Notes: generated by a model from the letters alone, not told the origin. DNA of 64,000 nt from Candidatus Eiseniibacteriota bacterium (GCA_963792585.1 CAWBWI010000001.1:896001-960000), one strand, 5' to 3'; counted from the stretch's first letter, positions 6,269 through 23,501 are shown. Program-made: numbers and translations.

Positions 6269-7645
6269 TCACGGGCGCAGGCCCGCCCACCGATTCGCGA
6301 GTTCCTTCGCCTCCTTGACGCAGCTGTTGATGGCCACCCCCCGGTAGGAATTGCCCGTCAGATGCAGACCGGGCGAACGCTCCAGGGACTCGGATATTCG
6401 TTCGAGCCGCCGTCCATGGCCGACGGCGTACTGCGGAATCCCGAGGTGGTGGCGGAAGATCCAGATCCTGCGCGGCGCCGCCTCGATTCCCATGCTCCGC
6501 TTCAGGTCCTCGCGCACGATTGCGAGCAGGTCGGCGTCCTGCAGGCGGACCGCCTCCGGATCCTGCGCGCCACCGATCATCGCGCGCATGAGGACCCACC
6601 CGGTCGGGGCTCTGTAGGAGAAGATGCTCGAATCCCAGAGACACCCCAGCACCCGGAGCCCCTGCCCCCGGGGCGCGAGGAAACCGAATCCATCCGGAGG
6701 TTCCGACGGCATGTCATCCGTCCGGTAGGCGAGCGCCACCACCGCCAATCCGGCGTAGGCGATCCCCTCGAGGTCCGTCGCCAGCCCGCCATCGAGAGGA
6801 CGCAGGAAGCGGGCCGCCGCCCTTGAGGGGGCCGCGACGATCAGGCGCCGCGCCTCGATCCGATCCGCACCAGTGCCGACTTCATATGCGTCCCCGGAAC
6901 GCGTCACGGAAAGGACCGGCCGATCGAGCCGGATGCGTTCGGGACCGATCCGCTCGGCGAGACGGTCGATCAGGCTCTCCATTCCGTCCCGAAACGAGGT
7001 CAGGACGCCTGCCGGCCCCGCAGGGCCTCCGGCGCGCGCCGCGCGTCTTGCCCGCTGGCGACGCGCGATCAAGGCGCGCACGAGGCTTCCGTGCTCGCGC
7101 TCCATCTCGGCCATCTTCGGGAACGTGCTTTCGAGCGAGAGCGTTCGCGAGTCGCCCGCGTACACCCCGGACACCATCGAGTCGACGAGGATCTCGGCGG
7201 CCTCTCGACCGATCCGACGCGACGCGAAGGCGAAGACCGTCTCATCGCCATCGGGCCTTCCGCGCGCGAACGGTTCGCCGAGAACGCGCAGTCGCCCCCG
7301 CACGGTGAGCAGATTCGAGGCAAGGAAGGCGGGAGGTTTGAGCGGAACCTCGCGCAGGCGCCCTGCGCGAAAGATGAAGCGCTTCCCGGCCGCGTCGCCC
7401 GCAGGGGTGACCGCGTCGCGGAGACCGATTCGGTCGATGAGTTCGAGAGTTTCCGGAACGCTGTCGAGGAAGCCGTTCACGCCCCACTCGACCGTGAAGC
7501 CGTCCTCGCGAGTTGTGCGGATGTTCCCCCCGAGCCGCCCCTCGGACTCGAGGACGATCAGCGAGGCGTCGGGCCGCACCCACAGGATCTCGCTCGCGCA
7601 GGAGAGCCCTGCGATCCCACCGCCGATCACGGCCCAGTCGAACAT
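6269..7645 (-). CDS. hemY: Protoporphyrinogen oxidase, HemY type
   Basis: VIGGGIAGL FAD motif, GGNIRT, SGVYAGD, GFGFL, GIPQY, GNSYRGV; TGATG coupling with hemH. Confidence 0.92.
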   Translation of the reverse strand: MFDWAVIGGGIAGLSCASEILWVRPDASLIVLESEGRLGGNIRTTREDGFTVEWGVNGFLDSVPETLELIDRIGLRDAVTPAGDAAGKRFIFRAGRLREVPLKPPAFLASNLLTVRGRLRVLGEPFARGRPDGDETVFAFASRRIGREAAEILVDSMVSGVYAGDSRTLSLESTFPKMAEMEREHGSLVRALIARRQRARRAARAGGPAGPAGVLTSFRDGMESLIDRLAERIGPERIRLDRPVLSVTRSGDAYEVGTGADRIEARRLIVAAPSRAAARFLRPLDGGLATDLEGIAYAGLAVVALAYRTDDMPSEPPDGFGFLAPRGQGLRVLGCLWDSSIFSYRAPTGWVLMRAMIGGAQDPEAVRLQDADLLAIVREDLKRSMGIEAAPRRIWIFRHHLGIPQYAVGHGRRLERISESLERSPGLHLTGNSYRGVAINSCVKEAKELANRWAGLRP

Positions 7646-8616
7646 CAGCTCCCGCCCTGCAAGAGCGGCTCGACGAGGTCGGCCAGCGTGCTCACGAAAC
7701 GCGCCGAATCGTTGAGCGATCCCACCCGCACGAACCGGCGGATCCCCACCCCGGCGGCGAGATCCCGGAAGAGGATGTCGATCTCGTAGAGGGTCTCGAT
7801 GTGGTCGGACACGAAAGCGATCGGCACCACCACGACGCACGGGTGGCCGGCGAGTCGCTCGATCGTTTCGTCGGTGCCGGGCCCGACCCAGCGCACGGGC
7901 CCCGTGCGGCTCTGGAAGGCAAGGCGGTGTTCGTTCGGAAGGTCGAGGAGGCTCACGACGGCATCGACCGTTTCGCGGATCTGCCCCACGTACGGATCCC
8001 CACGACGCGGCAGCGACTCCGGCACGCCGTGGGCGCTGAAGAGGATCAGCGCCGCGTGGCGATCCGCCTCGCTCAGGGTAGCCAGCGTCTCCTGGATCCG
8101 CTCTACGATCGACGCGAGATAGCCGGGTTCGAGATGGTAGCTGCGGATCGGGACGATCTCGAGCCCGGGAGCGATTCGATCGCGGGCCCGCATCAGCGCA
8201 TCGAGACTCGATCCGGTCGTCGCGACGCACTCGTGCGGGTAGAGAGGCAGGGCGATCGCCCTCGTCTCCGCGGCATCACGCAGAGCGGTGACGACGTCCT
8301 CGGAACCCGGAGACGTATATCGCATGGCAATGGGTACGCGCGTCCCGGCGAATCCCCGCCGTTCGAGTTCCGCCTCCAACCCCGCCGCCTGCACGCGCGT
8401 GATGCGCAGAAGTGGGGATCCTCCGCCGATCTGCGCGTAGTAACCGCGGACCTTCGGGCTCCGGAACGTCGAGATCATCCGCGCGAAGAGGGGTTGCACC
8501 AGGCGTCCTCCCGGCAGCTCGATGATCATCGGATCCGAGAACAGGTTCCGCAGGAACGGGCGAACGTCGTCCAGGGTGGACGGTCCGCCGAGATTCATCA
8601 GGACGACCGCGGCCAT
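7645..8616 (-). CDS. hemH: Ferrochelatase
   Basis: LMNLGGP, IGGGSPL, MRY, LPLYP, FSAHG, FQSR, FVSDHIETLYEID. Confidence 0.97.
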   Translation of the reverse strand: MAAVVLMNLGGPSTLDDVRPFLRNLFSDPMIIELPGGRLVQPLFARMISTFRSPKVRGYYAQIGGGSPLLRITRVQAAGLEAELERRGFAGTRVPIAMRYTSPGSEDVVTALRDAAETRAIALPLYPHECVATTGSSLDALMRARDRIAPGLEIVPIRSYHLEPGYLASIVERIQETLATLSEADRHAALILFSAHGVPESLPRRGDPYVGQIRETVDAVVSLLDLPNEHRLAFQSRTGPVRWVGPGTDETIERLAGHPCVVVVPIAFVSDHIETLYEIDILFRDLAAGVGIRRFVRVGSLNDSARFVSTLADLVEPLLQGGS

Positions 8617-8617
8617 C

Positions 8618-10012
8618 CTAGACGGTGCGCGAGAAGGTCGGCTTCCCGTCGGCCTGCTTCGCCCTCAGGTACCGGTCGAAGATCATGCATATGTTTCGCA
8701 CGAAAAGCCGACCCGTCTGGGTGACGCGAATCGCCGTTTCATCGACCTCGACGAAACCGTGGCCGACCGGCCCCTTGAGTTCGCCCAACTCCAATGCGAA
8801 TCGCTCCGCGAACCGGATCCCGAACTTCGCCTCGACCGCCGGAATGTCGAGAACGAAATTGCACATGAGGTTCGAGATCACGTGCCGCCGCAGCTTGTCG
8901 TCGTCGTCGAGGACATAGCCCCGCTCGATGGGCAATCTTCCAGCGTCGAGCGCCTCATAGTAGGTCGACAGCTTCTTGACGTTCTGGGCGAAAGCTCCGC
9001 GCACGTCCCCGATCGAGGAAACGCCGAGCCCGAGCTGATCGGCCGCGGGCATGACGGTATAGCCCATGAAATTCCTCTGAAGACGCCCCTGCGCCTGCGC
9101 AATCGACATCTCGTCCTCGGGCAGCGCGAAATGGTCCATTCCGATCTGGCGGTATCCGGCCTCCAGGAAGGCGGCCATCGCCTGTCCGAACAGCTCGAAC
9201 TTGACCGCCGGGGTCGGCAGGGTCGCCGGATCGGTCTTCTTCTGGTTCCCACGGATCCAGGGAACGAAGGCGAAGCTGTAGACCGCGACCCGGTCCGGAC
9301 GCATGCCGACGATCTGATCGAGGTTCTTCGCGAACATCTCGATCGACTGCATGGGCAGGCCGTAGATCAAGTCCACGTTGATCGAGGCGAACCCCGCCTT
9401 CCTGCAGTACTCGTAGAGCTCGATCGTTTCCTCGAGTCCTTGATTGCGGGCGATCGCCGCCTGCACTTCCGGCGTGAAGTCCTGGATGCCCATGCTGAGC
9501 CGGTTGAAACCGGCCTCGCGCAGGTAGTCGATCTGCTCGTGGCTCGTCACGCGTGGATCGACCTCGATCGCGACCTCGGCCTCCGGGAGGATCCGGAACT
9601 GTGCGCGGATCGCCTCCATCAGCTCCCGCATCTCGGCGACGGTGTGGTAGGTGGGAGTCCCGCCCCCCCAGTGAAGCTGGTTCACCCGGCGACGGTGCGG
9701 AAGCCGCGAGGCGATCAAGTCGATCTCGCGCTCGAGATAGTCGAGGTAGCGCTGCGCCACGCCCGCCTTCTTGTTGATGATCACGTGACAGCCGCAGAAC
9801 GTGCATCGCTCCTGACAGAACGGGAGGTGGACATAGAGCGAGAGCGGCTCGTCGAGGCCGTCGGCCTCCGCGAGCCTCCCTTCATAGGCCCCGCAGTCGA
9901 ACGACTCGTTGAACTCGATCGCCGTTGGGTAGCTCGTATACCGCGGCCCCGGCCGGTCGTACCGGCGCAACAGCTCCGCCGTGACCTTTGCGGTGGGCGT
10001 CTCCCGTGCCAT
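8618..10012 (-). CDS. hemN: Oxygen-independent coproporphyrinogen III oxidase (radical SAM)
   Basis: GPRYTSYPTA, LYVHLPFC-x3-C-x2-C, WGGGTP, IGMDHF, RNFMGY, FSRTV terminus. Confidence 0.97.
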   Translation of the reverse strand: MARETPTAKVTAELLRRYDRPGPRYTSYPTAIEFNESFDCGAYEGRLAEADGLDEPLSLYVHLPFCQERCTFCGCHVIINKKAGVAQRYLDYLEREIDLIASRLPHRRRVNQLHWGGGTPTYHTVAEMRELMEAIRAQFRILPEAEVAIEVDPRVTSHEQIDYLREAGFNRLSMGIQDFTPEVQAAIARNQGLEETIELYEYCRKAGFASINVDLIYGLPMQSIEMFAKNLDQIVGMRPDRVAVYSFAFVPWIRGNQKKTDPATLPTPAVKFELFGQAMAAFLEAGYRQIGMDHFALPEDEMSIAQAQGRLQRNFMGYTVMPAADQLGLGVSSIGDVRGAFAQNVKKLSTYYEALDAGRLPIERGYVLDDDDKLRRHVISNLMCNFVLDIPAVEAKFGIRFAERFALELGELKGPVGHGFVEVDETAIRVTQTGRLFVRNICMIFDRYLRAKQADGKPTFSRTV

Positions 10013-10018
10013 CGCTCT

Positions 10019-11047
10019 CTACCCCTTCCGTCCGAAGCGTCGCACGGCATCCACGAACGCCTGCGCGTTCTCGACCGGAGTCTCCGGCAGGATGCCATGG
10101 CCGAGGTTCATCACGTGCCCCTTCGCGCCGCGCGCCTCCTCCAGGATCGCGCGCGTGCGTGCCTCGATCGTCTCGATGCTGCCCAGCAGGCAGCCCGGGT
10201 CGAGATTGCCCTGCACGGCGAAGCGGTCGCCGAGGATCTCCCGAGCCCGCGCAAGAGGAATGCGCCAGTCGACGCCGATCATGTCGGCACCTACATCGGC
10301 AATCCGCGCGAGATGGGTCGAGGCTCCCGGAGCGAAGTAGACGGTCGGCACCCCGGCGGCAGCAACTCTCTCCAGAGTCTCCCGCGCATACGGAAGCGCA
10401 AAGGTCCCGAAGTCCCCCAGCGAGAGAACGCCCGCCCAGGAATCGAAGAGCTGGATTGCCTGCGCGCCGGCCTCGATCTGGCGGCGGAGCGAGTGGACGA
10501 CCGCCTCGGTCAGCTTGCGCAGCAGCCGGTGAACCGTTGCCGGATCGCTGAAGAGCATCGCGCGGATCTCCGCCTGGTTTCGCGAGCCTCCCCCGCAGAC
10601 CGCATAGGTCGCGAGGGTGAAAGGCGCACCCGCGAAGCCGATCAGCGGAACCGTTGCGTCGAGTTCGCGACGCAGCATCGCGACCGCGTCGGCGACGCGA
10701 TCGGTCAGATCGCTCTGGTCTCCTGTGCCGAGTCGGTCGACGTCCGCCGAGGAACGAACCGGGTCGGGGATCTCGGGCGCCGGGTGGAAGAGGACTTCCA
10801 TCCCCATCGCGGCGAGCGGCACGAGGATGTCGGAGAAGAGGATCGCAGCGTCCACGCCCAGGCGCTTGACCGGCTGAAGGGTCACTTCCGTCGCGAGCTC
10901 CGGGACAGTGCACATCTCCCAGAACGTGTGTTTCCGGCGCAGCTCCTGGTACTCCGGCAAGTAGCGTCCCGCCTGTCGCATCATCCAGACCGGAGTTCGC
11001 TCGACCGGCTCGCCGCGGCAGGCGCGAAGGAACAGGTCGTTCTTCAT
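10019..11047 (-). CDS. hemE: Uroporphyrinogen decarboxylase
   Basis: PVWMMRQAGRYLPEY, DAAILFSDIL, LIGFAGAPFTLATY, QGNLDP, NLGHGI. Confidence 0.97.
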   Translation of the reverse strand: MKNDLFLRACRGEPVERTPVWMMRQAGRYLPEYQELRRKHTFWEMCTVPELATEVTLQPVKRLGVDAAILFSDILVPLAAMGMEVLFHPAPEIPDPVRSSADVDRLGTGDQSDLTDRVADAVAMLRRELDATVPLIGFAGAPFTLATYAVCGGGSRNQAEIRAMLFSDPATVHRLLRKLTEAVVHSLRRQIEAGAQAIQLFDSWAGVLSLGDFGTFALPYARETLERVAAAGVPTVYFAPGASTHLARIADVGADMIGVDWRIPLARAREILGDRFAVQGNLDPGCLLGSIETIEARTRAILEEARGAKGHVMNLGHGILPETPVENAQAFVDAVRRFGRKG

Positions 11048-12357
11048 CGAGTCTCCCCGAACGCCACGCCCAGCGCCTCCCGGGAAGCCTCCACGATCCC
11101 GTCGATTTCCTCCTCGGTATGGGCCGCGCACAGGAATCCGGCCTCGAACTGCGAGGGGGCGAGGTAGATGCCGCGGTTCAGCATCTCGTGGAAGTAGATG
11201 CCGAATCGCCGTGTGTCCGCGCTCTTGACCTCCTCCCAGTTCGTCAACGGTCCCGTCTTGAAGTAGAGGCAGCCGAGAGACCCGATGCCGATGTAGGTCG
11301 CGGGCGCGCCGAGGTCCCGCAGGTTCTTCTCGACGCCGGCGCGCAGCCGTGCGGCGAGCGCCTCCAGCTTCCCGTAGACGCTTCCATCACGGAGGTGGGC
11401 GAGCATCGCGCGTCCCGCCGCCACCGCGAGCGGGTTGCCCGAAAGCGTGCCTGCCTGATAGACGGGTCCCTCGGGCGCGAGTCTCCGCATGAGATCGCGC
11501 CGGCCGCCGTAGGCGCCGACAGGCAACCCGCCGCCGATCACCTTGCCCAGCGTCGTGAGATCCGGCGTCACTCCGAAGCGCTCTTGGGCCCCACCGTAAG
11601 CCAGTCGGAATCCGGTGATGACCTCATCGAAGATCAGGAGCGATCCCTCGCGGTCGCAGATCGAGCGCAGCCCCTCCAGGAATCCCGGCTCCGGCAGGAC
11701 GCAGCCCATGTTCGCCGCCACTGGCTCGACGATGATCGCCGCGAGCTTGCCCGGATAGGCGGCGAAAGCGGCCGCGACCGCTTCGAGGTCGTTGTACGGG
11801 ACATTCAACGTGTCCCTCGCCGTTCCCGCCGTCACGCCGGGAGAGCTCGGATTACCAAAGGTCGCCGCTCCCGAGCCGGCCTCGATCAGGAAGCTGTCTC
11901 CGTGGCCGTGATAACATCCCGCGAATTTCAGGATGACGTCGCGGCCGGTCGCCCCGCGGGCGAGCCGCACCGCGCTCATCGTCGCCTCCGTCCCCGAGCT
12001 GACGAGGCGCACCGATTCGATCGAAGGCACCGCCGCGACGATCTCCTCGGCCAGCGCGACCTCTCCCTCGGTCGGCGCGCCGAAGCTCGTCCCCTTCTCC
12101 GCCGCCCGAGCGACCGCCTCGAGAATGGCGGGGTGCGCATGCCCCAGGATCAGGGGACCCCACGACCCGACGAGGTCGATGTATTCGCTTCCGTCCACGT
12201 CCCAGATCCTCGATCCCGCGCCGCGGGCGACGAAGACCGGCCCGCCCCCCACGGCGCGGAACGCGCGCACGGGCGAGTTCACGCCGCCCGGGATCACCTC
12301 CGCGGCGCGCGCGAAGAGCGCGCCGCTATGCTCTCGGCCCCCGCTCAGCGCAGCCAC
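11044..12357 (-). CDS. hemL: Glutamate-1-semialdehyde 2,1-aminomutase
   Basis: [60 protein letters not shown] start inferred. Confidence 0.96.
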
Positions 12358-13316
12358 CGCGCGGCCTCCTTCGCGTGGTAGGTCAGGATCAGATCGGCTC
12401 CGGCGCGGCGCATCGACGTGAGCGTCTCGAGAACGATCCGCTCTCGATCGATCCACCCACGTTCCGCCGCGGCGCACACCATCGCGTATTCCCCGGAGAC
12501 GTTGTAGGCCGCGATCGGGGCGTCGAACTCCTCGCGCACCGCCCGGATCACGTCGAGGTAGGCGAGCGCCGGCTTGACCATGACGATATCGGCCCCCTCG
12601 TCGAGGTCGAGAGCGACCTCGTGGAGCGCCTCACGCACGTTGGCCGGATCCATCTGATACCCCCGGCGATCCCCAAACTGCGGCGTGGATCCCGCAGCCT
12701 CGCGGAAAGGACCGTAGTACGCCGACGCGTACTTCGCGGCGTAGGAGCAAATCACGGTGTCCGAGCAGTCCGCTTCGTCGAGGGTCTCGCGGATCGCCTC
12801 CACCCTACCGTCCATCATGTCGCTCGGCGCGATCACGTCCGCGCCGGCCCGCGCATAGGCCCCCGCCGCCCGCGCGAGCAGGGGAAGCGTCGCGTCGTTG
12901 TCCACGGTATCGCCACGCAGCACCCCGCAATGCCCATGGTCGGTGTACTCGCAGAGGCAGACGTCCGCCCAGACGGACAGGTCCGGCACCGCCGACTTCA
13001 CCGCGGTGATCGCGCGCGGGATGATGCCGTCGGTCGCATAGGCCTCCGACCCGACCGCGTCCTTCCTGTCGGGGATACCGAAGAGGATCACGCCGGGGAT
13101 CCCGAGCCCGCGCACCTCCTTGCACTCCTCGATCAGAAGATCGACGGAGAGCCGCTCCACCCCGGGCATCGCCTCGATCGGCAGTCGAACGCCCGATCCG
13201 TGGCAAACGAACAAGGGGAGGATCAGATCCTCGGCGTCGAGACGCGTCTCCCTCACCATCCGGCGCATCGTATCCGTGCGTCGCAATCTTCTCGGACGGG
13301 AAACCGGGAAGCTCAT
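12345..13316 (-). CDS. hemB: Porphobilinogen synthase (Zn-dependent ALAD)
   Basis: [52 protein letters not shown]. Confidence 0.97.
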
Positions 13317-14743
13317 TGGGCTGCTCCTATCGATGGGACTTCCATCTTGTGGGGGCACGGGGATGGGATGCAGGCGTCGGCCAGCGCACTCATCGACGCT
13401 CCGAATGCCTCGGCGTCGGGAACGATTCCCAAGGCGCGAAGCGCCTTGCTCGTTGTCGGACCCATGGAGACGACGCGAATCTGGCGGGCCCCGTTCCCGA
13501 GGACCTCGATCCCGAAGCGCTCGGCGAACGCGCGGGCCGCCGATGCGCTCGCAAAGGTCACCGCGCAGATCGTGCCCGCGCGAAGCTCCTCGAGGATCTC
13601 GCGGGGCGCACTGGAGACCGCGAGAGTCCGGTATGCGATCCGCTCGTCGACGCGCGCACCCGCCGCCCGCAGCGCATCGGACAACTCCCTGCCGCCCTCT
13701 TCGGCACGCGGCAGCAGAACGCGCTTGCCCTTCAACTCCTCGAGCGCTGCAAGGGCCGCGGCCAAGCCCGTTCCCGTCGACTCCTCCGCGATCAGATCGA
13801 CACGCCCGAAGCATTCGATCGCGCGCCGGGCGGTCCCGGGACCGACCGCGGCCAGCCGCGTCGACATGGGCAAGGGGCCATCCGCGCCCCGCGCCCGCGC
13901 GAAGGCGTCGACCCCCCGAGCGCTCGTGAAGAGGATCCACCGGTAGCGCGAGACTTCCGACGCCGCCTTGCGAAGCGGGGTCGGATCCTTGGGCGGCTCC
14001 GTCCGCACGAGCGGGCAACGAACAGGCACCCCGCCAAGTGCCGCGATGGCACGCGAAAGGCCCCCGTCCGGCTCTTCTTCGCGCGTGACGAGAATCCTCT
14101 GCCCCGCGAGCGGGGCCGCCTCCGGCGATTTCGGGACACTCAGGCTCCGGCTGATGAAATCGAAGAGCGCCTCGGGCTCCGGCCGGCCGCGGGCGGGACC
14201 GTGTCCGTCCTCGATGCAGCGCAGGGCGGCTCCTTCAAGGCATCCGAAGATCAGATCGGTGGCGAACTCGGGCTCGAGAGGACGGAAGGTCCCGTCCTGA
14301 ACCCCCCGTGCCAGAACGTCCCGGAGGAGCTGACGGAGGTCGTTGCGCAGCGCATCGAGTTCCCGCGGCGCCCCGAGCGCCGGGCACGAGCGTTCCTTGC
14401 GCAGGATTCGGAAGAAGTCGGGGTACTTCACGAGGAACATGAGGGAGTGGACGACGATCTTGCGCAAGCGGACCCGGGCCGATTCTTCCTCCTCGAACAG
14501 ATCGTGAAGGGCGGCGAGGAGGCTGTCCATCCGCGCCGTGATGATCGAGAAGTAGAGGTCCTCCTTGGACTGGAAATGATTGTAGAGCGTTCCCTTCGCC
14601 ACGTGTGCGTGGGCCGCGACTTCCTCCATGGTGACCCGGGATAGCTCTCGCCCCGCGAAGAGAGGCGCCGCTGCATCGAGGATCCGGGCCCTCTTGCCCC
14701 TCGTTCGCCCTCCCCTGGCGGGGGGCTGGACGGTCTCGTTCAC
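13313..14743 (-). CDS. hemD: TetR-family regulator / uroporphyrinogen-III synthase fusion
   Basis: N-terminal TetR HTH ([36 protein letters not shown]) plus TetR C-domain, linker, then HemD ([45 protein letters not shown]). GTG start with GGGGGAG RBS overlaps the hemC stop. Confidence 0.88.
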
Positions 14744-15693
14744 GGTGCTCCCCCCTCGGCGCCGGCGGCGCGAACGGATTCGAGGATCGCTCCCGCGCCA
14801 CTCTGGATCAGCTCGGCCGCAAGCTGCGCCCCGATGTCGTCCGCCTCTTCGATTCGCCCGGCCTTCCGCCCGCGCAGCAATGTGCGTCCTCCGGGGTCGG
14901 CCACCATTCCATCCAGGTCGAGCCACGCCGCATCCCCGGCGCGCGGCCGCGCGTGCGCCCCCACGGGCACCTGACAACCACCGCCCAGGGCATGCAGAAA
15001 CCCTCGCTCCGCGTCGGTCGCGGCCCGCGTCGTGGAATCCTCCAGTCGCGAGAGGAGGTCCGCCATCCGGGCATCGCAATTTCGGATCTCGACTCCCAAC
15101 GCGCCCTGCCCCGGCGCGGGAAGCAGCAGCTCGATGGAGAGGACCTCGCTCACCGACTCGAGCAGGCCGAGTCGCTCCAGCCCCGCCCGGGCGAGGATCA
15201 CCCCGTCGAACTCCCCCGAGATCCCCTTGCGTACGCGCGTGGGAACGTTGCCGCGCAGCGTCTCGACCCTCAGGTCGGGCCGTGCGTGGAGCAGCTGCGC
15301 CTGACGCCGGAGGCTCGAGGTGCCGATGCGCGCCCCGGCCGGGAGTGCCGCGAACCGTTCCCCGTGGGCAGAGATCAAGGCATCCCTCGGATCGGTCCGC
15401 GAGAGGACCGCCCCGAGTCTGAGCCCATCGGGGAGCTCGGTCGGCAGATCCTTCAGGCTGTGCACGGCGAGATCGCACCGACCATCGAGAAGGGCCTCCT
15501 CGATCTCCTTCGTGAAGAGCCCCTTGCCACCGATCTTCGCGAGTGGCGCGTCCAGGATCCGATCCCCCGTCGTCGAGATGATCGTGATCTCGACGACACA
15601 CCCCGGCTCAATGGAGCGGAGCAGATCGGCCACGTGCTCGGCCTGCCAGCGGGCGAGGTCGCTTCCCCGAGAGCCGATCCTAAGCGCCGTCAT
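14740..15693 (-). CDS. hemC: Hydroxymethylbilane synthase
   Basis: IGSRGSDLARWQ, GGKGLFTKE, AVHSLKDLP, GTSSLRR, RGNV, GGGCQVP. Confidence 0.97.
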   Translation of the reverse strand: MTALRIGSRGSDLARWQAEHVADLLRSIEPGCVVEITIISTTGDRILDAPLAKIGGKGLFTKEIEEALLDGRCDLAVHSLKDLPTELPDGLRLGAVLSRTDPRDALISAHGERFAALPAGARIGTSSLRRQAQLLHARPDLRVETLRGNVPTRVRKGISGEFDGVILARAGLERLGLLESVSEVLSIELLLPAPGQGALGVEIRNCDARMADLLSRLEDSTTRAATDAERGFLHALGGGCQVPVGAHARPRAGDAAWLDLDGMVADPGGRTLLRGRKAGRIEEADDIGAQLAAELIQSGAGAILESVRAAGAEGGAP

Positions 15694-16960
15694 CGTCGCG
15701 ATCCTCCGATAGCCCGAAGAGGCGTCGAACGGTGTCGAGCCGACCGAGCATTCCAGAGCCGTGCCGCTGGAAGCTCTTGATATTGACGGTCGGATCGTGG
15801 AGCAGCTTGTTGACGATCCCCTTCGTCAGCGCCTCGATCTGCTCCCGGTCCTTTTCGCAGAGCTTGCGCCCGTACTTTTCCACCTCGAGCGCGCGGACAT
15901 TCTCGAATCGCTCGCGCAGCTCCCGGATCAGCGGGGCGACCTCGAGCGCGCCGTACCATTTGAGGAAATGGTCCAGCTCCTCGTGGATGATCGCTTCGAC
16001 CTTCGGGATCTCGCGACCGCGCCGTTCGAGGTTCGCCTTCACCAACCCTTCGAGGGCATCGATGTCGTAGAGGAAGACGTTTTCGAGCTTCGCCACGGAG
16101 GGCTCGACGTCGCGAGGGACCGCGAGGTCGATGAACAGGAGGGTCCGGCCACCGCGAGAGGCGAAGACCCGACGAACCATCTCCTGCCGGATAACCGGCT
16201 CGGGCGACGCGGTTGCGGTGACGACGATGTGGGCCCCGGCCATGGCCTTCTCGATCTGGTCGAACGGCACCGCCCGCCCCCCCAGATCCGCGGCCAGTTC
16301 CATCGCCTTCTCGTGGGTGCGGTTGACCACGACGATCTGGCCGACCCCTTCCTCCTTCAGGTGGAGCGCGGCCAGGCGGCCGGTCTCCCCGGCGCCGATC
16401 AACAATGCCGTTCGTTGCCCCATGTCGGAGAAGATGCGCGAGGCGAGCGAGACTCCGGCGTAGCTGACCGAGACGGCGCCGACGCCGACCTCGGTCTCGC
16501 TGCGGACGCGCTTGCCGACGCGAAACGCGGCATCGAGAAGTCGCTGCATCAGGGGTCCGGCGGTCCCGGCCCGCCGAGCGATCTCGAAGGCCTCGTGGAC
16601 CTGGCCGAGGATCTGGACCTCGCCGACGATCATCGAGTCGATCGAGCTGGCGACGCGGAAGAGGTGGGACACCATCTCCCGCCCCGAGTGGGTATAAAGG
16701 GTGCCGTCGGTCTCTCCGAGATCGAGCCCCCGGTGCGATCGCACCATCTCGAGGAACTGCTCTCGTCCGAGGTCCGTCGTGTCGGCGAGAGCGTAGAGCT
16801 CGGTTCGATTGCAGGTGGAGAGCAGCAACCGCTCGGGCATCGCGTCGGGCGTGCCGGCGCGACGCAGGAGTTCCTCCGCTTCCCCGCCGGCGAAGGCGAG
16901 CCGTTCCCGCAGCGAGAGCGGGGCGGTCCGGTGGCTCAGGCCAACGACGACGAGATCCAT
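15680..16960 (-). CDS. hemA: Glutamyl-tRNA reductase
   Basis: GLSHRTAP, LSTCNRTE, DSMIVGEVQILGQ, IGAGETG, DLAVPRDV, KLLHDP. Confidence 0.97.
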   Translation of the reverse strand: MDLVVVGLSHRTAPLSLRERLAFAGGEAEELLRRAGTPDAMPERLLLSTCNRTELYALADTTDLGREQFLEMVRSHRGLDLGETDGTLYTHSGREMVSHLFRVASSIDSMIVGEVQILGQVHEAFEIARRAGTAGPLMQRLLDAAFRVGKRVRSETEVGVGAVSVSYAGVSLASRIFSDMGQRTALLIGAGETGRLAALHLKEEGVGQIVVVNRTHEKAMELAADLGGRAVPFDQIEKAMAGAHIVVTATASPEPVIRQEMVRRVFASRGGRTLLFIDLAVPRDVEPSVAKLENVFLYDIDALEGLVKANLERRGREIPKVEAIIHEELDHFLKWYGALEVAPLIRELRERFENVRALEVEKYGRKLCEKDREQIEALTKGIVNKLLHDPTVNIKSFQRHGSGMLGRLDTVRRLFGLSEDRDDDGA

Positions 16961-17787
16961 GCCAGTCCCGCGAAACGGTGGAACGAGTGGATGAAGAAGT
17001 TCAGGGCGACGAGCGCCAACCCCATCAGGAGAAAACCCCCGATCGAGAGGTAGACCGTGCGGTGGCCGCGCCATCCGAGGAGATAGTGCGCGACCAGACA
17101 GATGGCATAGATGATCCACACGAAGACGGTCGTCAGGAACATCGGGTCGGTCATGAAGCTGGGATAGAGCCGCAAGGCCCACCGGATGCCGACCGGAATC
17201 GCGATCGTCAAGGCCGCGAACCCGAAGGCGGCTGCCCGGATGTTCATCTTCGCGAGGACCTCGAGCGGAGGAAGCTTCCGGTAGACCAACCCGAAGCGAT
17301 TCGCCTTCAGCTCGTTGTACAGAAGCAGGAAGAGGAAGCCGTAGATCGCCGATACCGCGAACGCCGAGTATCCGAGGATGGCGCTAAGCGTGTGCAACCC
17401 GAAGAGGGGCTCTCGCAGCAGCGGCTTGACTTCCCCGGCGAGCGCGATGCGCCCCGACGAGGCGAACTGCAGGAGCGCCGAGAAGCCGACCAGGAAGAGA
17501 CCGGTCATGACATTGCGCGTGCGTGTCTCGACGTAGCCGTACGCGGCAGCAGTGGAAAAGGCGATCACCGTCAGAATCTCCGGCGCGGTCGCCAGTGGAA
17601 TCCTCTTGTGGAAGAGGATGAACGTGGTCAGAAACGCGAGGTGGGTCACAAGGGTGATGAGGAAGACAGGTCGGGCATAGGGTGAGTAGCGGTCCCCGCG
17701 GCCGAAGAAGCGCATGCCGTAGAGGACGACGCTCAAGACGTAGAGCGTCGGCACCGCACAACGAAGGACCGGGAGCAGATGGCTCAT
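16936..17787 (-). CDS. HemX/CcsA-like membrane protein (cytochrome c assembly family)
   Basis: About 8 TMs, 'LHT', KLPPLEVL, degenerate WWD region (IRWA..TDP), GWRG, C-terminal SFHRF; first gene of the hem operon. Confidence 0.8.
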   Translation of the reverse strand: MSHLLPVLRCAVPTLYVLSVVLYGMRFFGRGDRYSPYARPVFLITLVTHLAFLTTFILFHKRIPLATAPEILTVIAFSTAAAYGYVETRTRNVMTGLFLVGFSALLQFASSGRIALAGEVKPLLREPLFGLHTLSAILGYSAFAVSAIYGFLFLLLYNELKANRFGLVYRKLPPLEVLAKMNIRAAAFGFAALTIAIPVGIRWALRLYPSFMTDPMFLTTVFVWIIYAICLVAHYLLGWRGHRTVYLSIGGFLLMGLALVALNFFIHSFHRFAGLAWISSSLA

Positions 17788-17827
17788 TCGATAGGCGCCT
17801 GGCCGTCGGGGGGAACCCGACCCTTTC

Positions 17828-17847
17828 TGAACTGACCAGTCAGTTCA
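17828..17847. promoter_or_regulatory. Perfect palindromic operator, candidate TetR site
   Basis: TGAACTGAC-CA-GTCAGTTCA, 40 bp upstream of the first hem operon start codon. Confidence 0.75.
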
Positions 17848-17854
17848 ATAATGC

Positions 17855-17883
17855 AGGCTAACCCACCAAGGTGACCCGGTCAA
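17855..17883 (-). promoter_or_regulatory. Putative sigma70 promoter of the hem operon
   Basis: Minus strand TTGACC-N17-TAGCCT. Confidence 0.6.
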
Positions 17884-17889
17884 GCCTCT

Positions 17890-18711
17890 CTAATCCGTCG
17901 GGGGATCCCCCTCGGCATCCAGGTCGAGGTCTCCCTGACTGGGGCGATCCCTCCGGTTGAGCCAGAGAGCCGGCTCTTCCCGTTCCAGGAAGGCCTGGGT
18001 CAGGGACCCGAAGTCCTCCGCCCCCGTGCTGGTCGGGGCCGTCACCTGGATGGGAGCATGGAAGCCCCCCGCCTCGGCCAGGCGCGCGTTCTCACGGATC
18101 GGCCCCAGGACGAACGCCCCGTACTTTTCGCGCAATGCCGTTTCGAGTCGATTGCTCAAGCGCGTATGGACCGTCCGGTTGGGAATGATCCCGATCGTGC
18201 GCAGGCGCGGATTCCGATGTCGTTTGACCTGATCGACCACGTCCATCAACAGGTCCATCACCGCGACATCCAGCTCCCGCGTGGAGACCGGAATCAGCAC
18301 GCCGTCCGCGCAGGAGAGGGTCGCCACAAGCAGCGATCCCCACGTCGGTGGTGTGTCGACGAAGAGGTAGTCCACGTCCGGTGGGACCTGACCGATCAGG
18401 TGGGCGAGCCTGTCCCGCGTGGGATGCGTCCCGTTGTCGAACGGCGCTAGCAATCGACTGCTGGGAGCGATGCGGAGCCCACTGACGAGCGTTGATAGGA
18501 GCACGTCCGTGAGCCTCTTCTCTCCCGAGAGCGTGTCCGCCATGTTGCCATTCGAGGATCGGGGCAGAAGGTGGAAGGTGCTCGATGCCTGCGGGTCGAG
18601 GTCCATCAGGATGACCTTGCGACCCGTCAATGCGATACCGGCGGCGAGATTCACGGCGATGGTCGTCTTGCCGGAGCCACCCTTAATGTTAGCAACAGCA
18701 TACGTTCTCAT
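17890..18711 (-). CDS. ParA/Soj family ATPase (orphan)
   Basis: Deviant Walker A KGGSGKTT, DLDPQ, DTPP, IREN..LAEA. Confidence 0.88.
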   Translation of the reverse strand: MRTYAVANIKGGSGKTTIAVNLAAGIALTGRKVILMDLDPQASSTFHLLPRSSNGNMADTLSGEKRLTDVLLSTLVSGLRIAPSSRLLAPFDNGTHPTRDRLAHLIGQVPPDVDYLFVDTPPTWGSLLVATLSCADGVLIPVSTRELDVAVMDLLMDVVDQVKRHRNPRLRTIGIIPNRTVHTRLSNRLETALREKYGAFVLGPIRENARLAEAGGFHAPIQVTAPTSTGAEDFGSLTQAFLEREEPALWLNRRDRPSQGDLDLDAEGDPPTD

Positions 18712-18810
18712 GGGTCTCCCGATTTTGCCGGTCAGGATAAAACCGGCCGTGAGCATAACCCATGGAACGACCGTCTGCTAGGCCGGATTTCGCCCTCCGC
18801 GGCGACGGGT

Positions 18811-21081
18811 CTAGTGCCCCCGGAGTTTGTTCAGCGCGCTCCCCGCGCGGAACCAGCCTATCTGCTCCTCATTCAACGTGTGTCGCAGGATGACCGCCTC
18901 GGTCGACCCGTCGTCGTGAACGAGGCGGGCGACCACGTCCCTCCCAGGGGCGAGCGCCTTCAACCCGGTGAGGACGACCCGGTCGCCTTCCCGGACCTTC
19001 TCATAGTCGGCGACATCTACGAACGTCAGCGGCAGGATCCCCTGCTTCTTGAGGTTCGATTCATGGATGCGCGCGAATGAGCGGACGATCACCGCCATGC
19101 CGCCGAGGAACCGCGGGGACATGGCGGCGTGCTCGCGGCTCGAGCCTTCCCCGTAGTTGTCGTCTCCGACCACGACCCAACGCCGGCCCTCCTTCTTGTA
19201 GGCGCGGGCGATCGTCGGGATCGGTTCCCCCGTCTTGCCGGTCAGAAGGTTGCGGCCGTGCCCCGTCTCGCCGGTGAAAGCGCTCACGGCCCCGTTGAAC
19301 ATGTTGTCGCTGATCCGATCGAGGTGGCCGCGATAGCGCAGCCACGGGCCGGCGGGAGAGATGTGGTCGGTGGTGCACTTGCCCTTGGCCTTGAAGAGCA
19401 GCAGAAGTTCGATCTCGTCCGCGCCGTCCCATGCGGGGAAGGGCTCGAGGAGCTGCAGCCGTTCGCTGCGGGGATCGACCTCGACTGCGATCGATCCTCC
19501 GCCCGGCGGCGGGCGCCTCATATCCGCTTCGGTCCTTCACGAATCCGTTCGGGGGCAGCTCCGGCGCCTTCTTGGGAGGCTTGAGCCGCAGCTTCGCCCC
19601 GCCGGCCGTCGACGACCTCGTCCACGTTGGGATCGAAGGAGAGACGGCCCGCCAGTCCGAGCGCCATCACGATCTCGGGACTCGCGATGAAGGCCAGGGT
19701 GTTTGGATCCCCGTCGTTGCGCTTGGGGAAGTTGCGGTTGAAGGATGTCAGGATCGAGTTCGGCTCCCCCTTCTCCCTCGCCCGCTTCCACTGCCCGATG
19801 CACGGACCGCAGGCGTTCGCCAGGACCTTCGCGCCGACCGACTCCAGGCTCGCAAGCTGGCCGTCGCGCTCGATCGTCGCGCGGATCTGCTCGCTCCCCG
19901 GAGTGACGAGCAGCTCGCTCGTCATCCGCACCCCCTGGGCGTGCGCCTGCTCCGCCACGTCGGCGGCGCGCGAGATGTCTTCGTAGGAGGAGTTCGTGCA
20001 GGAGCCAACCAACGCGACGGTGATCGCGTCCGGGTATCCCTTCTCCTTCACCTCCGCGCGCGAGTCGCGAGACCGGGCGCGTGAGATCCGGCGTGTGCGG
20101 TCCGACGATTTGCGGCTCGAGCTTCGAGAGATCGATCTCGACGATCCGCTCGAAGAACCGCTCCGGCGCCTTCTCAACCTCGGGATCCGCGGTGAGGAGG
20201 CGGCGGAATCGCTCGGCCAGTTCGGCGAGCCCCGAACGGTCGGTGGCGCGGAGGTAGCGGGCCATCGGCGCGTCGAAGGGAAAGACCGATCCGGTGGCGC
20301 CCAGTTCTGCGCCCATGTTCGTGATCGTTCCCTTACCGGTGCAGGAGACCTCCGCGGCGCCGGGCCCGAAGTACTCGAGGACGCGATTGGTCCCCCCCTT
20401 CACGGTGAGCAGTCCGCAGAGGTAGAGGATCACGTCTTTCGGCGACGTCCAGCCCGACAACGCGCCGGTCAGATGGACGCCGATCAAGGTCGGGTACTTG
20501 ACCTCCCATGGAAAGCCCGCCATCACATCGACCGCGTCGGCCCCGCCCACACCCGAAGCGATCATGCCGAGTCCGCCGGCGTTTGGGGTGTGCGAATCGG
20601 TTCCGATCATCAGTCCGCCCGGGAACGCATAGTTTTCCAGGATGACCTGGTGGATGATGCCCGCGCCCGGCTTCCAGAAACCGATCCCGTACTTCGCGGA
20701 GACGTCGTGCAGGAAGGCATAGACCTCGCGGTTCTCGTCGAGAGCCGCCTGCGTGTCGGCAGACGCCCCCACGCGCGCCTGGATCAGGTGATCGCAGTGA
20801 ACGGTCGTCGGAACGGCCGTGCGATCCCGCCCCGCGAGCATGAACTGCAGGAGCGCCATTTGCGCCGTCGCATCCTGCATCGCGACCCGATCCGGCCGGA
20901 GCATGAGGTAGCTCTTGCCGGCCTCCAGATCCTGGCTCTCTGGATCGTCGAGGTGACCGAGCAGGATCTTCTCCGAGAGGGTCAGAGGGCGGCCAAGACG
21001 CTTGCGGGCGACCGCGAGACGCTCTTCCATCTTCGCGTAGACGCCGGCAACGAACTCAGGGGTCGAGTCGATCGATTGCAT
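18811..21081 (-). CDS. Aconitate hydratase (mitochondrial-type), split by apparent frameshifts
   Basis: [67 protein letters not shown] spread over three or more frames (breaks near 20060 and 19520-19600). Confidence 0.9.
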
Positions 21082-21867: not shown

Positions 21868-22812
21868 TCAGGAGGGTGCAACCGCGCGCGCCCAGTCGTG
21901 GACCTCCGAGAAGCTCCCCATGACGAGGGTGCCGGTCAGGGGGCGGGCCCCCTCACCTCCGAGTATCAGGTGGATTCGACGGGGGAGCTTCCGCCGCAGT
22001 TTCTGGATCTGCCCGGTCATCCTCGACCCGCGTCCGGCAACCGAAACGCTCAGGGCGACGGCGCTCGCTCCCCGCTCAACCGCAAGCGCAGCGACCTGCT
22101 CCGGCGGAACCTCCGTACCGAGGTAGAGGACTCGACGCCCCGCGCTGGCCATCGCTAGCGCCGCCATCTGCAGCCCGAGGGCATGGGTTTCTCCCGGAAG
22201 CGTCGCGAGAATCATTGAGGGTCCATCCGCCCGTTCCTCGAAAGGCAGGCGCAGCGTCCGCAGGAGGTCGGCGATCCGCTCGGAGAGGAAATGCTCGTGC
22301 CGAATCTCGAGCCGACCTTCGGCCCACTCCTCCCCCACCGCCCGGACCAGCGGGGTGATCGCGTCGTTGAGGTAGGCCACCGGTCCCAAGCGCGCCCAGT
22401 CGAGGAGAAGCAGGTGGGTCAGTTGCTCCGTGTCGAAATCCCGGACGGCTTGGAGAAGGACTTCGAGAAGGGCGGGACTCGTACCCGTCCCCTCCGGTCC
22501 GACCTGGGACCGCTGTCCGTCCCACGTCGTCCCTCCTACCCGGAGGAGTCGATCGAGGTCGTTCTCGTCCGCGCCGACGACTTCCGCAGCGCGGTGCCCC
22601 ATGGCGATGGCCTCGGCGACCTTTCGAAGGCGGGGGATGTTCGCGGTGGCATAGACGCGATGTCCCGAGGGCTTTCGATCCGGCGCGGGGAACCCATAAC
22701 GGCGTTCCCAACTGCGTAGGGTCTCGATTGGGATCGATGTCGCGCGGGAGAGAGCTCCGATCGTCAACATTCCGGTCGAGTCAACGGAAGCCCTTCCCCT
22801 CCTCGAGTTCAT
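21868..22812 (-). CDS. CarH/LitR-like MerR-family B12-binding regulator
   Basis: MerR HTH (TIGALS..TLRSWERRYG..GHRVY), W-x9-EH (WAEGRLEIRHEH), ExHxxG (GETHALG), ALSVS, LGG. Start may be 22770. Confidence 0.85.
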   Translation of the reverse strand: MNSRRGRASVDSTGMLTIGALSRATSIPIETLRSWERRYGFPAPDRKPSGHRVYATANIPRLRKVAEAIAMGHRAAEVVGADENDLDRLLRVGGTTWDGQRSQVGPEGTGTSPALLEVLLQAVRDFDTEQLTHLLLLDWARLGPVAYLNDAITPLVRAVGEEWAEGRLEIRHEHFLSERIADLLRTLRLPFEERADGPSMILATLPGETHALGLQMAALAMASAGRRVLYLGTEVPPEQVAALAVERGASAVALSVSVAGRGSRMTGQIQKLRRKLPRRIHLILGGEGARPLTGTLVMGSFSEVHDWARAVAPS

Positions 22813-22880
22813 CGAACCCCCCATTCGTCGCGGCCGACCCTTCCGCCGCGGCGGCGGAAGGGTCCCGGGACGGTACGATC

Positions 22881-23405
22881 CTACTTCGTCTGCTTCGGGA
22901 GAATCACCGTGTCGATGACGTGGATGATGCCGTTGGAACAGGCGATGTCGGTTTTGAGGACGTTCGCTCCATCGATCGTGACACCCTTTTCTCCGGCGAC
23001 CACCGAAATCTCCTTGCCCTGCACGGTCTTCCAGGTCTTTTGGTTCACGACGTCGGCGGCCATGGCGCGGCCGGCGACCACGTGGTAGGTGAGGATCGAG
23101 GCGAGCGCCTCCTTGTCCTTCAGGAGGGATTCGATGGTGCCGGCCGGCAGCTTCGCGAAGGCCGCGTCGGTCGGAGCGAAAACCGTGAACGGCCCCTTGC
23201 CCTTCAAGGTCGCCTCGAGGCCTGCCGCCTGGACCGCGGCCACCAGGGTCTTGAAGTCGCCGGCCGCGACGGCGGTCTCCACGATGTCCATCTGCGGGAC
23301 CTCGACCTTCGGCTTGCCCGCGAAGGCGAGCGAGGCGACGCCGAGTACGGAGGCTGTGATCATACCGGCCACGAGGGCCGTGCGGATACGGTTGTGGGTC
23401 TTCAT
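22881..23405 (-). CDS. Secreted fasciclin (FAS1) domain protein
   Basis: Signal peptide, [34 protein letters not shown]. Confidence 0.93.
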
Positions 23406-23501
23406 TGTTGGATCTTCCTTTCCCTTATCCATGTGCTGCGGGGACCAGGTCCCCGCAAGTTTCCATTCCACTCGATCAGGATCCTTGGCTGCGCGGTCCG
23501 T

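Follow-up and report, generated by a model that had tools for sequence, protein, structure and literature searches.

A conserved TetR–uroporphyrinogen III synthase fusion encoded in a bacterial heme operon and its predicted operator

Introduction

Pathway enzymes and the repressors of their own pathways are combined in one polypeptide in BirA, PutA and NadR, where the ligand state of the enzyme acts as the switch. A second type of fusion is the actinobacterial NnaR, in which an N-terminal HemD domain, reported to be inactive, is joined to a C-terminal OmpR-type winged helix; its hosts retain a second, separate HemD and its regulon concerns nitrate and nitrite (PMC11162112, PMC6277429). Among TetR-type proteins, HrtR, HatR and FhtR employ a His or Tyr axial ligand for heme and repress heme efflux until they are released by heme (PMC7858072, PMC11442138, PMC12670364, PMC6303022). 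Reviews describe heme-responsive TetRs as regulators of efflux and assign dedicated regulators of heme synthesis to other families (PMC11442138). Two such regulators are Irr and HbrL of the Fur and LysR families; HbrL-heme represses hem genes, while Irr shows the opposite sign (PMC11442138). AibR of Myxococcus xanthus is a TetR encoded inside a biosynthetic operon that binds the promoter of this operon and mediates end-product co-repression, with isovaleryl-CoA as effector (PMC5389471). Bacillus FadR/YsiA (1vi0, 3whb, 5gp9, 5gpc) is an unfused TetR that controls fatty-acid degradation and is released by long acyl-CoA. Its operator, the FadR box WTGAATGAMTANTCATTCAN, contains two repeats that are 4 bp apart and is bound by a dimer of dimers (PMC5397183).

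Here, a tetR-hemD fusion gene is described that lies in a 64,000-nucleotide stretch of DNA (the window) from a Candidatus Eiseniibacteriota bacterium. Like BirA, PutA and NadR, its product P0001 unites an enzyme and a (predicted) DNA-binding domain for one pathway, but its TetR half has a ligand domain of its own and also exists unfused. As in NnaR, HemD and a DNA-binding domain share one chain, but the order is reversed, the DNA-binding part is a TetR and the HemD domain is the only copy. P0001 shares the TetR fold and a heme-related target with HrtR, HatR and FhtR and may share their ability to bind heme, but its predicted target is a synthesis operon instead of an efflux system. The location inside a biosynthetic operon recalls AibR, which has no enzyme domain. 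Heme-dependent control of hem genes, as proposed here, recalls Irr and HbrL, which are neither operon-encoded TetRs nor joined to an enzyme of the pathway. The closest relative of known structure is FadR (about 20% identity), and the predicted operator mirrors the two repeats of the FadR box, 4 bp apart, with different bases and at the heme operon only. No description of a TetR-HemD fusion or of a TetR that represses an operon for heme synthesis was found among the top-ranked papers of a mostly open-access literature. The fusion thus appears to be undescribed, as an earlier note on this DNA had supposed, and so does the subfamily of heme-operon TetRs to which it belongs.

Fusion gene and operon context

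The genome that contains the window (G000) comprises 5.4 Mb and is 84% complete. Translation of the minus strand yielded a stop-free reading frame of 476 aa that overlaps hemC by GTGA (14740-14743) and hemB by ATGA (13313-13316), in agreement with the single frame between these two genes that the earlier note had reported. The order of the operon is ccsA-hemA-hemC-tetR::hemD-hemB-hemL-hemE-hemN-hemH-hemY, and the neighbors on both sides of the fusion were confirmed.

16936..17787, minus strand: ccsA/HemX-like membrane protein gene, operon head (domain search, gene order of relatives)
15680..16960, minus strand: hemA, glutamyl-tRNA reductase (start placed by domain boundary)
14740..15693, minus strand: hemC (domain search)
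13313..14743, minus strand: tetR-hemD fusion encoding P0001, 476 aa (full-length homologues)
12345..13316, minus strand: hemB (domain search)
6269..12348, minus strand: hemL, hemE, hemN, hemH and hemY, the remaining operon (domain search)

Pfam domains were detected in P0001 in the order TetR_N (residues 21-65, E 2.7e-15), TetR_C_24 (88-171) and HEM4 (229-455, E 1.1e-50). Each match exceeds its own cut-off (56.3 bits against 24 for PF00440, 172 bits against 27.5 for HEM4), which supports the earlier description of an intact TetR and an intact HemD. The AlphaFold model of the full-length protein (pLDDT 82, pTM 0.54) consists of two well-predicted domains and a poorly predicted linker, and the length of the linker segment ranges from 12 to 74 aa across 69 fusions.

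14141..14710, minus strand: TetR domain, residues 12-201, nine helices, FadR/YsiA-like (model, structure search)
14549-14683, minus strand: helix-turn-helix, residues 21-65, with Lys50-Gly51-Tyr54 (Pfam, conservation)
14447..14449, minus strand: codon of His99, a family-specific residue of the ligand domain
14111..14140, minus strand: linker, residues 202-211 (low model confidence, variable length in homologues)
13376..14110, minus strand: HemD/UroS domain, residues 212-456 (HEM4 match, fold, conserved residues)
13631-13633, minus strand: codon of Tyr371 (alignment with solved UroS)

A CcsA/HemX-like protein (16936-17787) is encoded at the operon head in both lineages in which the fusion is found. 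As HemX lowers glutamyl-tRNA reductase in Bacillus and Staphylococcus (PMC12670364), a second layer of control through this protein is possible by analogy. Directly upstream of the operon, a ParA/MinD-like ATPase is encoded (17890-18756, minus strand), as is the case in G001, G003 and G005. Farther along the window, a MerR-type regulator with a B12-binding-like domain (21868-22824, minus strand) and a fasciclin-like protein (22881-23471, minus strand) were recognized by eye.

Integrity of the reading frame

The aconitase gene of the same window (18811-21081, minus strand) has a reading frame that is broken near 20058, 19600 and 19510, while the gene is intact in G003 (794 aa). These breaks are probably assembly indels, and the continuity of the linker therefore had to be verified with independent contigs. 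Over 12938-17900, a DNA contig from run X3 aligned with 257 substitutions but without any gap, and a contig from the RNA library of run X19 covers 13819-14575, also with 0 gaps. Among the matches listed in four public runs no indel was detected across the fusion; for the near-identical run X1, no linker-bridging piece was present among the pieces listed. RNA-library contigs from X18 and X19 span much of the operon, although their presence does not show transcription. A frameshift or other artefact at the linker was excluded by the gap-free independent contigs and by the stop-free homologues. The earlier note had also pointed to a possible stop and restart at an out-of-frame TGA-GTG near 14140. 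This motif was rejected as a relic start and is considered incidental, as the in-frame Leu aligns with a conserved Leu that ends helix 9 of the TetR domain.

The HemD half

A Foldseek search matched the model of the HemD domain to the two-lobed UroS fold (target TM 0.81 for 3re1 and 0.80 for 4es6). Tyr371 aligns with a Tyr residue of 4es6, 3re1 and 3mw8, which we take to have a catalytic role in UroS. This residue as well as Gly301, Thr304, Ser399, Gly428 and Thr431 are conserved in 69 of 69 fusions. Only one HEM4 match, P0001 itself, is present in the whole 84%-complete genome, so that the claim of a single hemD extends from the operon to the genome. Because of the sole HEM4 copy and the conserved residues, the HemD half is most likely a working uroporphyrinogen III synthase. 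No uroporphyrinogen methyltransferase or CobA was found in G000 at this completeness and the only TP_methylase protein is RsmI. A branch point is therefore not evident in this genome, which weakens the earlier suggestion that control is exerted at the uroporphyrinogen III branch point.

The TetR half

The TetR domain was modeled with nine helices (pLDDT 89.6). Bacillus FadR is its nearest solved relative by profile (E 3e-27) and shares the top rank by structure (3whb, Z 20.8, rmsd 2.6, 183 aligned residues), with FadR, KstR2 and DarR all at Z of about 20 and AibR at Z 19.2 (rmsd 2.7, 180 aligned). Nevertheless, the FadR equivalog model NF053878 scored 55 bits on P0001 against a cut-off of 200. 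HrtR and FhtR were absent from the top 60 sequence and the top 50 structure matches, which is still compatible with kinship.

The residues Lys50, Gly51 and Tyr54 of the recognition region are present in 120 of 120 long proteins among the matches listed. In DarR, a Lys-Gly pair reads base pairs (PMC10636190), and Lys50-Gly51 may be the equivalent of this pair. Within the ligand domain, His99 is found in 53 of 58 core orthologues and in all 120 long proteins among the matches listed, but in only 2 of 14 paralogues. Arg71, Phe103, Lys106 and Arg175 are further family-specific residues, and together with His99 they are candidate contacts to heme or a porphyrin. The conserved set of His99, Arg71 and Lys106 hints at such an effector, although a His and basic residues would also suit CoA or a nucleotide. 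The heme ligand of HatR is also numbered His99 (PMC6303022); this agreement in numbering was taken as coincidence. At least five other TetRs are encoded in G000.

The predicted operator

Comparative analysis of the region upstream of ccsA revealed the palindrome TGAACTGACYRGTCAGT(C/T)A, which closely follows a promoter-like site.

17828..17847, minus strand: predicted operator, 9-2-9 inverted repeat TGAACTGAC-TG-GTCAGTTCA (comparative genomics)
17831-17844, minus strand: operator core ACTGAC-N2-GTCAGT (comparative genomics)
17855..17883, minus strand: promoter-like site read by eye, with -35 TTGACC (17878-17883), a 17-bp spacer and -10 TAGCCT (17855-17860)

The predicted operator is composed of two GA(A/C)C-N6-GTCA-type repeats with an offset of 4 bp, and its consensus TGAACTGACYRGTCAGTCA displays the architecture of the FadR box with different bases. 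It begins 7 bp after the -35/-10 pair. This pair rests on reading by eye, as does the similar geometry in five relatives, and a scanner for the sigma-70 consensus returned 0 sites. A second short palindrome, TGACC-G-GGTCA (17872-17882), overlaps the putative -35 hexamer.

The exact core is located at the same position before ccsA in 6 of 6 Eisenbacteria-type loci and in 0 of 9 loci of TetR-less kin. The looser pattern [GA]AC-N6-GTCA was counted within 200 bp upstream of ccsA. It was present at 27 of the 32 fusion loci that include the 5' end of ccsA (38 loci in total), where 0.77 would be expected by chance. Among 14 TetR-less regions, 9 contain ccsA (one of them off the operon head), and a single weak site was detected at these nine with 0.32 expected by chance. 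These counts are circular, since the pattern was derived from the counted loci, and the kin are not independent. The exact core, which had been fixed beforehand, was therefore scanned across 251 genomes of an Ignavibacteria class sample, 178 of which contain ccsA and 20 of which encode an orthologue of the TetR (E below 1e-54). The core occurs in 23 genomes, and 13 of the 23 hits are no farther than about 40 bp from ccsA, exclusively in TetR-positive genomes. This corresponds to 13 of 20 TetR-positive against 0 of 158 TetR-negative genomes with ccsA, in a sample whose members are related and incomplete. When the 30 closest ccsA loci were analyzed with the loose pattern under the same limits, a site was found in 7 of 9 TetR-positive and 0 of 21 TetR-negative cases. 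Both TetR-positive exceptions are Ignavibacterium album-like, with ccsA close behind the upstream gene. Four of the 10 core hits away from ccsA adjoin unrelated TetR genes, and ACTGAC-N2-GTCAGT reads as a generic TetR-type box.

Within G000, a single site with at most one mismatch exists genome-wide and it heads the heme operon. Five further sites were found at two mismatches; as 4 of the 5 are inside long ORFs and none is annotated, no wider regulon is claimed. The bare pattern TGAC-N6-GTCA was rejected for the mapping of targets, as it occurs too often. In many Ignavibacteria, a pair of looser GAC-N6-GTCA sites at a distance of about 45 bp presumably flanks a Bacteroidota-type promoter. No site at ccsA was detected in Ignavibacterium album-like genomes (L050-L052, G347, G417). 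Regulators of this group (L050-L052, L279, L280) have lost His99, Arg71 and Lys106 and retain an intact helix-turn-helix, and they are possibly decaying or re-targeted. In G206:C1 (L236, L297), a two-site ccsA is located about 660 kb from hemC-tetR::hemD, in either a rearranged operon or a misassembly. The region 17820-17890, which had been proposed for DNA-binding assays, thus contains a conserved predicted operator, and judged from sequence P0001 very probably regulates its own operon, as the earlier note had proposed.

Distribution and origin of fused and split forms

A search for the architecture and its synteny identified 19 further clusters of full-length fusions with 45-92% identity, two of which are named Candidatus Eisenbacteria. 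In the phylum of the window, 6 of 206 genomes (G000 included) encode the full-length fusion and the gene order is identical in all of them. A scan of GTDB retained 80 loci. Of these, 32 encode a fusion, and 30 of the 32 are labelled Ignavibacteria or Bacteroidetes, with about 30% identity. Searching with a profile of the TetR half brought up 617 proteins with a length of 390-2000 aa, and TetR_N and HEM4 occur together in 120 of 120 long proteins among the matches listed. The first match in the ESM Atlas is a HEM4+TetR_N cluster of 106 members with an automatic name, and databases label members automatically as uroporphyrinogen-III synthase/AcrR family regulator. Four genomes of other phyla gave weak TetR matches only, and a phylum sample of 351 genomes added no TetR orthologues beyond the class. 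The tetR-hemD fusion is a real, conserved and apparently uncharacterized enzyme-repressor gene.

Among the 20 orthologues of the class sample, 15 are fused, one lies at a contig edge and four are separate genes directly before hemD. The split tetR genes (G220, G232, G390, G426) overlap hemD by ATGA or ATGACTGA and have the same predicted operator. In L102, tetR precedes cobA-hemD with an ATGA overlap. Separate TetRs before hemD or cobA-hemD thus share the pocket residues (5 loci) and the operator (4 readable promoters) with the fused forms. Other stand-alone orthologues are labelled Zixibacteria, KSB1, Spirochaetaceae and Bacteroidota.

Several variants of the locus were also observed. In many Ignavibacteria (L023:9349-9963, most of L024-L052), hemC and tetR-hemD are separated by a gene for a lipoprotein-like protein of 200 aa. 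P0126, P0129, P0133, P0134, P0140, P0141 and P0150 are divergent GC-rich TetR-HemD fusions on a long branch, mostly without His99, and the HemD domains of this group cluster with other unfused HemDs. P0123 (607 aa) combines apparent receiver domains with the second half of TetR-HemD and is possibly chimeric.

The origin of the fusion was analyzed with quick trees that are subject to GC/AT composition bias and whose groups were named after the first tree had been inspected. The TetR tree of 89 rows groups the orthologues into one clade (SH-aLRT 95), in which the fusion state changes at least four times. With 34 of the 89 rows, a single clade of all fused TetRs was rejected (p-AU 4e-5), while one clade of the two main fused groups stays compatible (p 0.063, 34 rows). 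In the HemD tree, the HemD domain of P0001 falls among unfused HemDs from the same phylum, and monophyly of the fused HemDs from both lineages was rejected (p-AU 0.0026, 34 of 79 rows). According to these trees, tetR and hemD became fused at least twice and probably three or more times. The simple account would be that the stop between tetR and hemD, a conserved gene pair, was lost on more than one occasion. Repeated fusion requires no special function, as hemD is the next gene downstream and overlaps by ATGA.

Models of function

We consider it likely that P0001 is a bifunctional protein with largely independent halves, a working HemD and a TetR repressor of the heme operon, which were joined by repeated fusion. 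The N-terminal half would belong to a subfamily of FadR/YsiA-like TetRs that is specific to the heme operon. As predicted here, it would dimerize and bind the palindrome over the ccsA transcription start, probably as a pair of dimers, and thereby repress the entire operon from ccsA to hemY including its own gene. The C-terminal half would act as the uroporphyrinogen III synthase of the cell, largely apart from the TetR half. Heme or a late porphyrin might be held in the TetR pocket by His99 and basic residues, and heme might tighten DNA binding in end-product co-repression. A tetrapyrrole effector in this pocket is almost an even call, and co-repression by heme, which feedback on a synthesis operon needs, is possible but doubtful. 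HemD would be dispensable for the regulatory circuit, since the unfused orthologues keep both the operator and the pocket. In the working picture, P0001 works like an operon autorepressor with a passenger enzyme.

Canonical TetR repression with a non-tetrapyrrole inducer, for example acyl-CoA or a nucleotide, or effector-free negative autoregulation is a substantial possibility, although it falls well short of even. It is partly counted within the preferred explanation because it differs only in the effector. The top neighbors by sequence and structure (FadR, KstR2, DarR and AibR) respond to acyl-CoAs or cyclic nucleotides and not to heme. The basic residues suit both phosphates and carboxylates, and the operator has the FadR-box architecture. 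This reading has to contend with the score of the FadR model far below its cut-off, with the one G000 operator at the heme operon only and with the family-specific His.

The earlier note proposed a trigger enzyme. In such a protein, occupancy of HemD by hydroxymethylbilane or uroporphyrinogen III would control the TetR domain, or HemD would feed it a ligand in cis, so that flux sets transcription. Such a role is unlikely, and less likely than first proposed. The repeated fusion to HemD and the HEM4 domain in all long TetR proteins among the matches listed speak for it, as does the linker segment of 19 aa that is kept in most Ignavibacteria fusions, and Irr provides a precedent by reading heme at ferrochelatase (PMC11442138). 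The claim is nevertheless weakened by unfused TetRs with the same operator and pocket residues, by the variable linker, by the low pTM of the full-length model with its low-confidence linker and by repeated fusion to a gene that is merely the next one downstream. No CobA branch was found in G000 either. A true coupling through HemD would accordingly come as something of a surprise. There is also little probability that a heme-operon TetR with heme as co-repressor was fused to HemD under selection for passing uroporphyrinogen III or a conformational state to the repressor, giving rise several times to a trigger enzyme of the TetR type out of two separable genes.

It is distinctly improbable that another TetR binds the palindrome and that the TetR domain of P0001 is carried along as a passenger or works at some other site. 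The motif type is common to unrelated TetRs, G000 encodes other TetRs and the Ignavibacterium album-like group has the domain without the site. Against this, the site accompanies the orthologue, fused or split, in two lineages that are only distantly related, each of the three comparisons of TetR-positive and TetR-negative loci separates the two groups, and Lys50, Gly51 and Tyr54 are invariant among the matches listed. An NnaR-like role, with HemD as the dead sensor module of a transcription factor, has a precedent in NnaR itself but is very improbable for the only HemD of G000, which has conserved Tyr, Ser, Thr and Gly positions and a gene flanked by hemC and hemB within a complete pathway, as NnaR hosts retain a separate HemD. 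An assembly artefact in which an indel merged two genes, for which the frameshifted aconitase and the natural split forms could be invoked, has a negligible probability in view of the gap-free contigs, the 19 further full-length clusters, five related stop-free genomes and 617 long matches.

Significance

The predicted regulon of a heme-operon TetR with a mapped operator is a stronger result than the fusion itself. It presents a candidate TetR repressor of the entire heme pathway, whose operator is mapped with single-base precision and occurs in two or more distantly related lineages of bacteria. The fused, split and site-less forms are natural controls for the effect that fusion of a repressor to an enzyme has on regulation. 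If heme does tighten the binding of the repressor to DNA, the system would offer a heme-OFF genetic switch for metabolic engineering.
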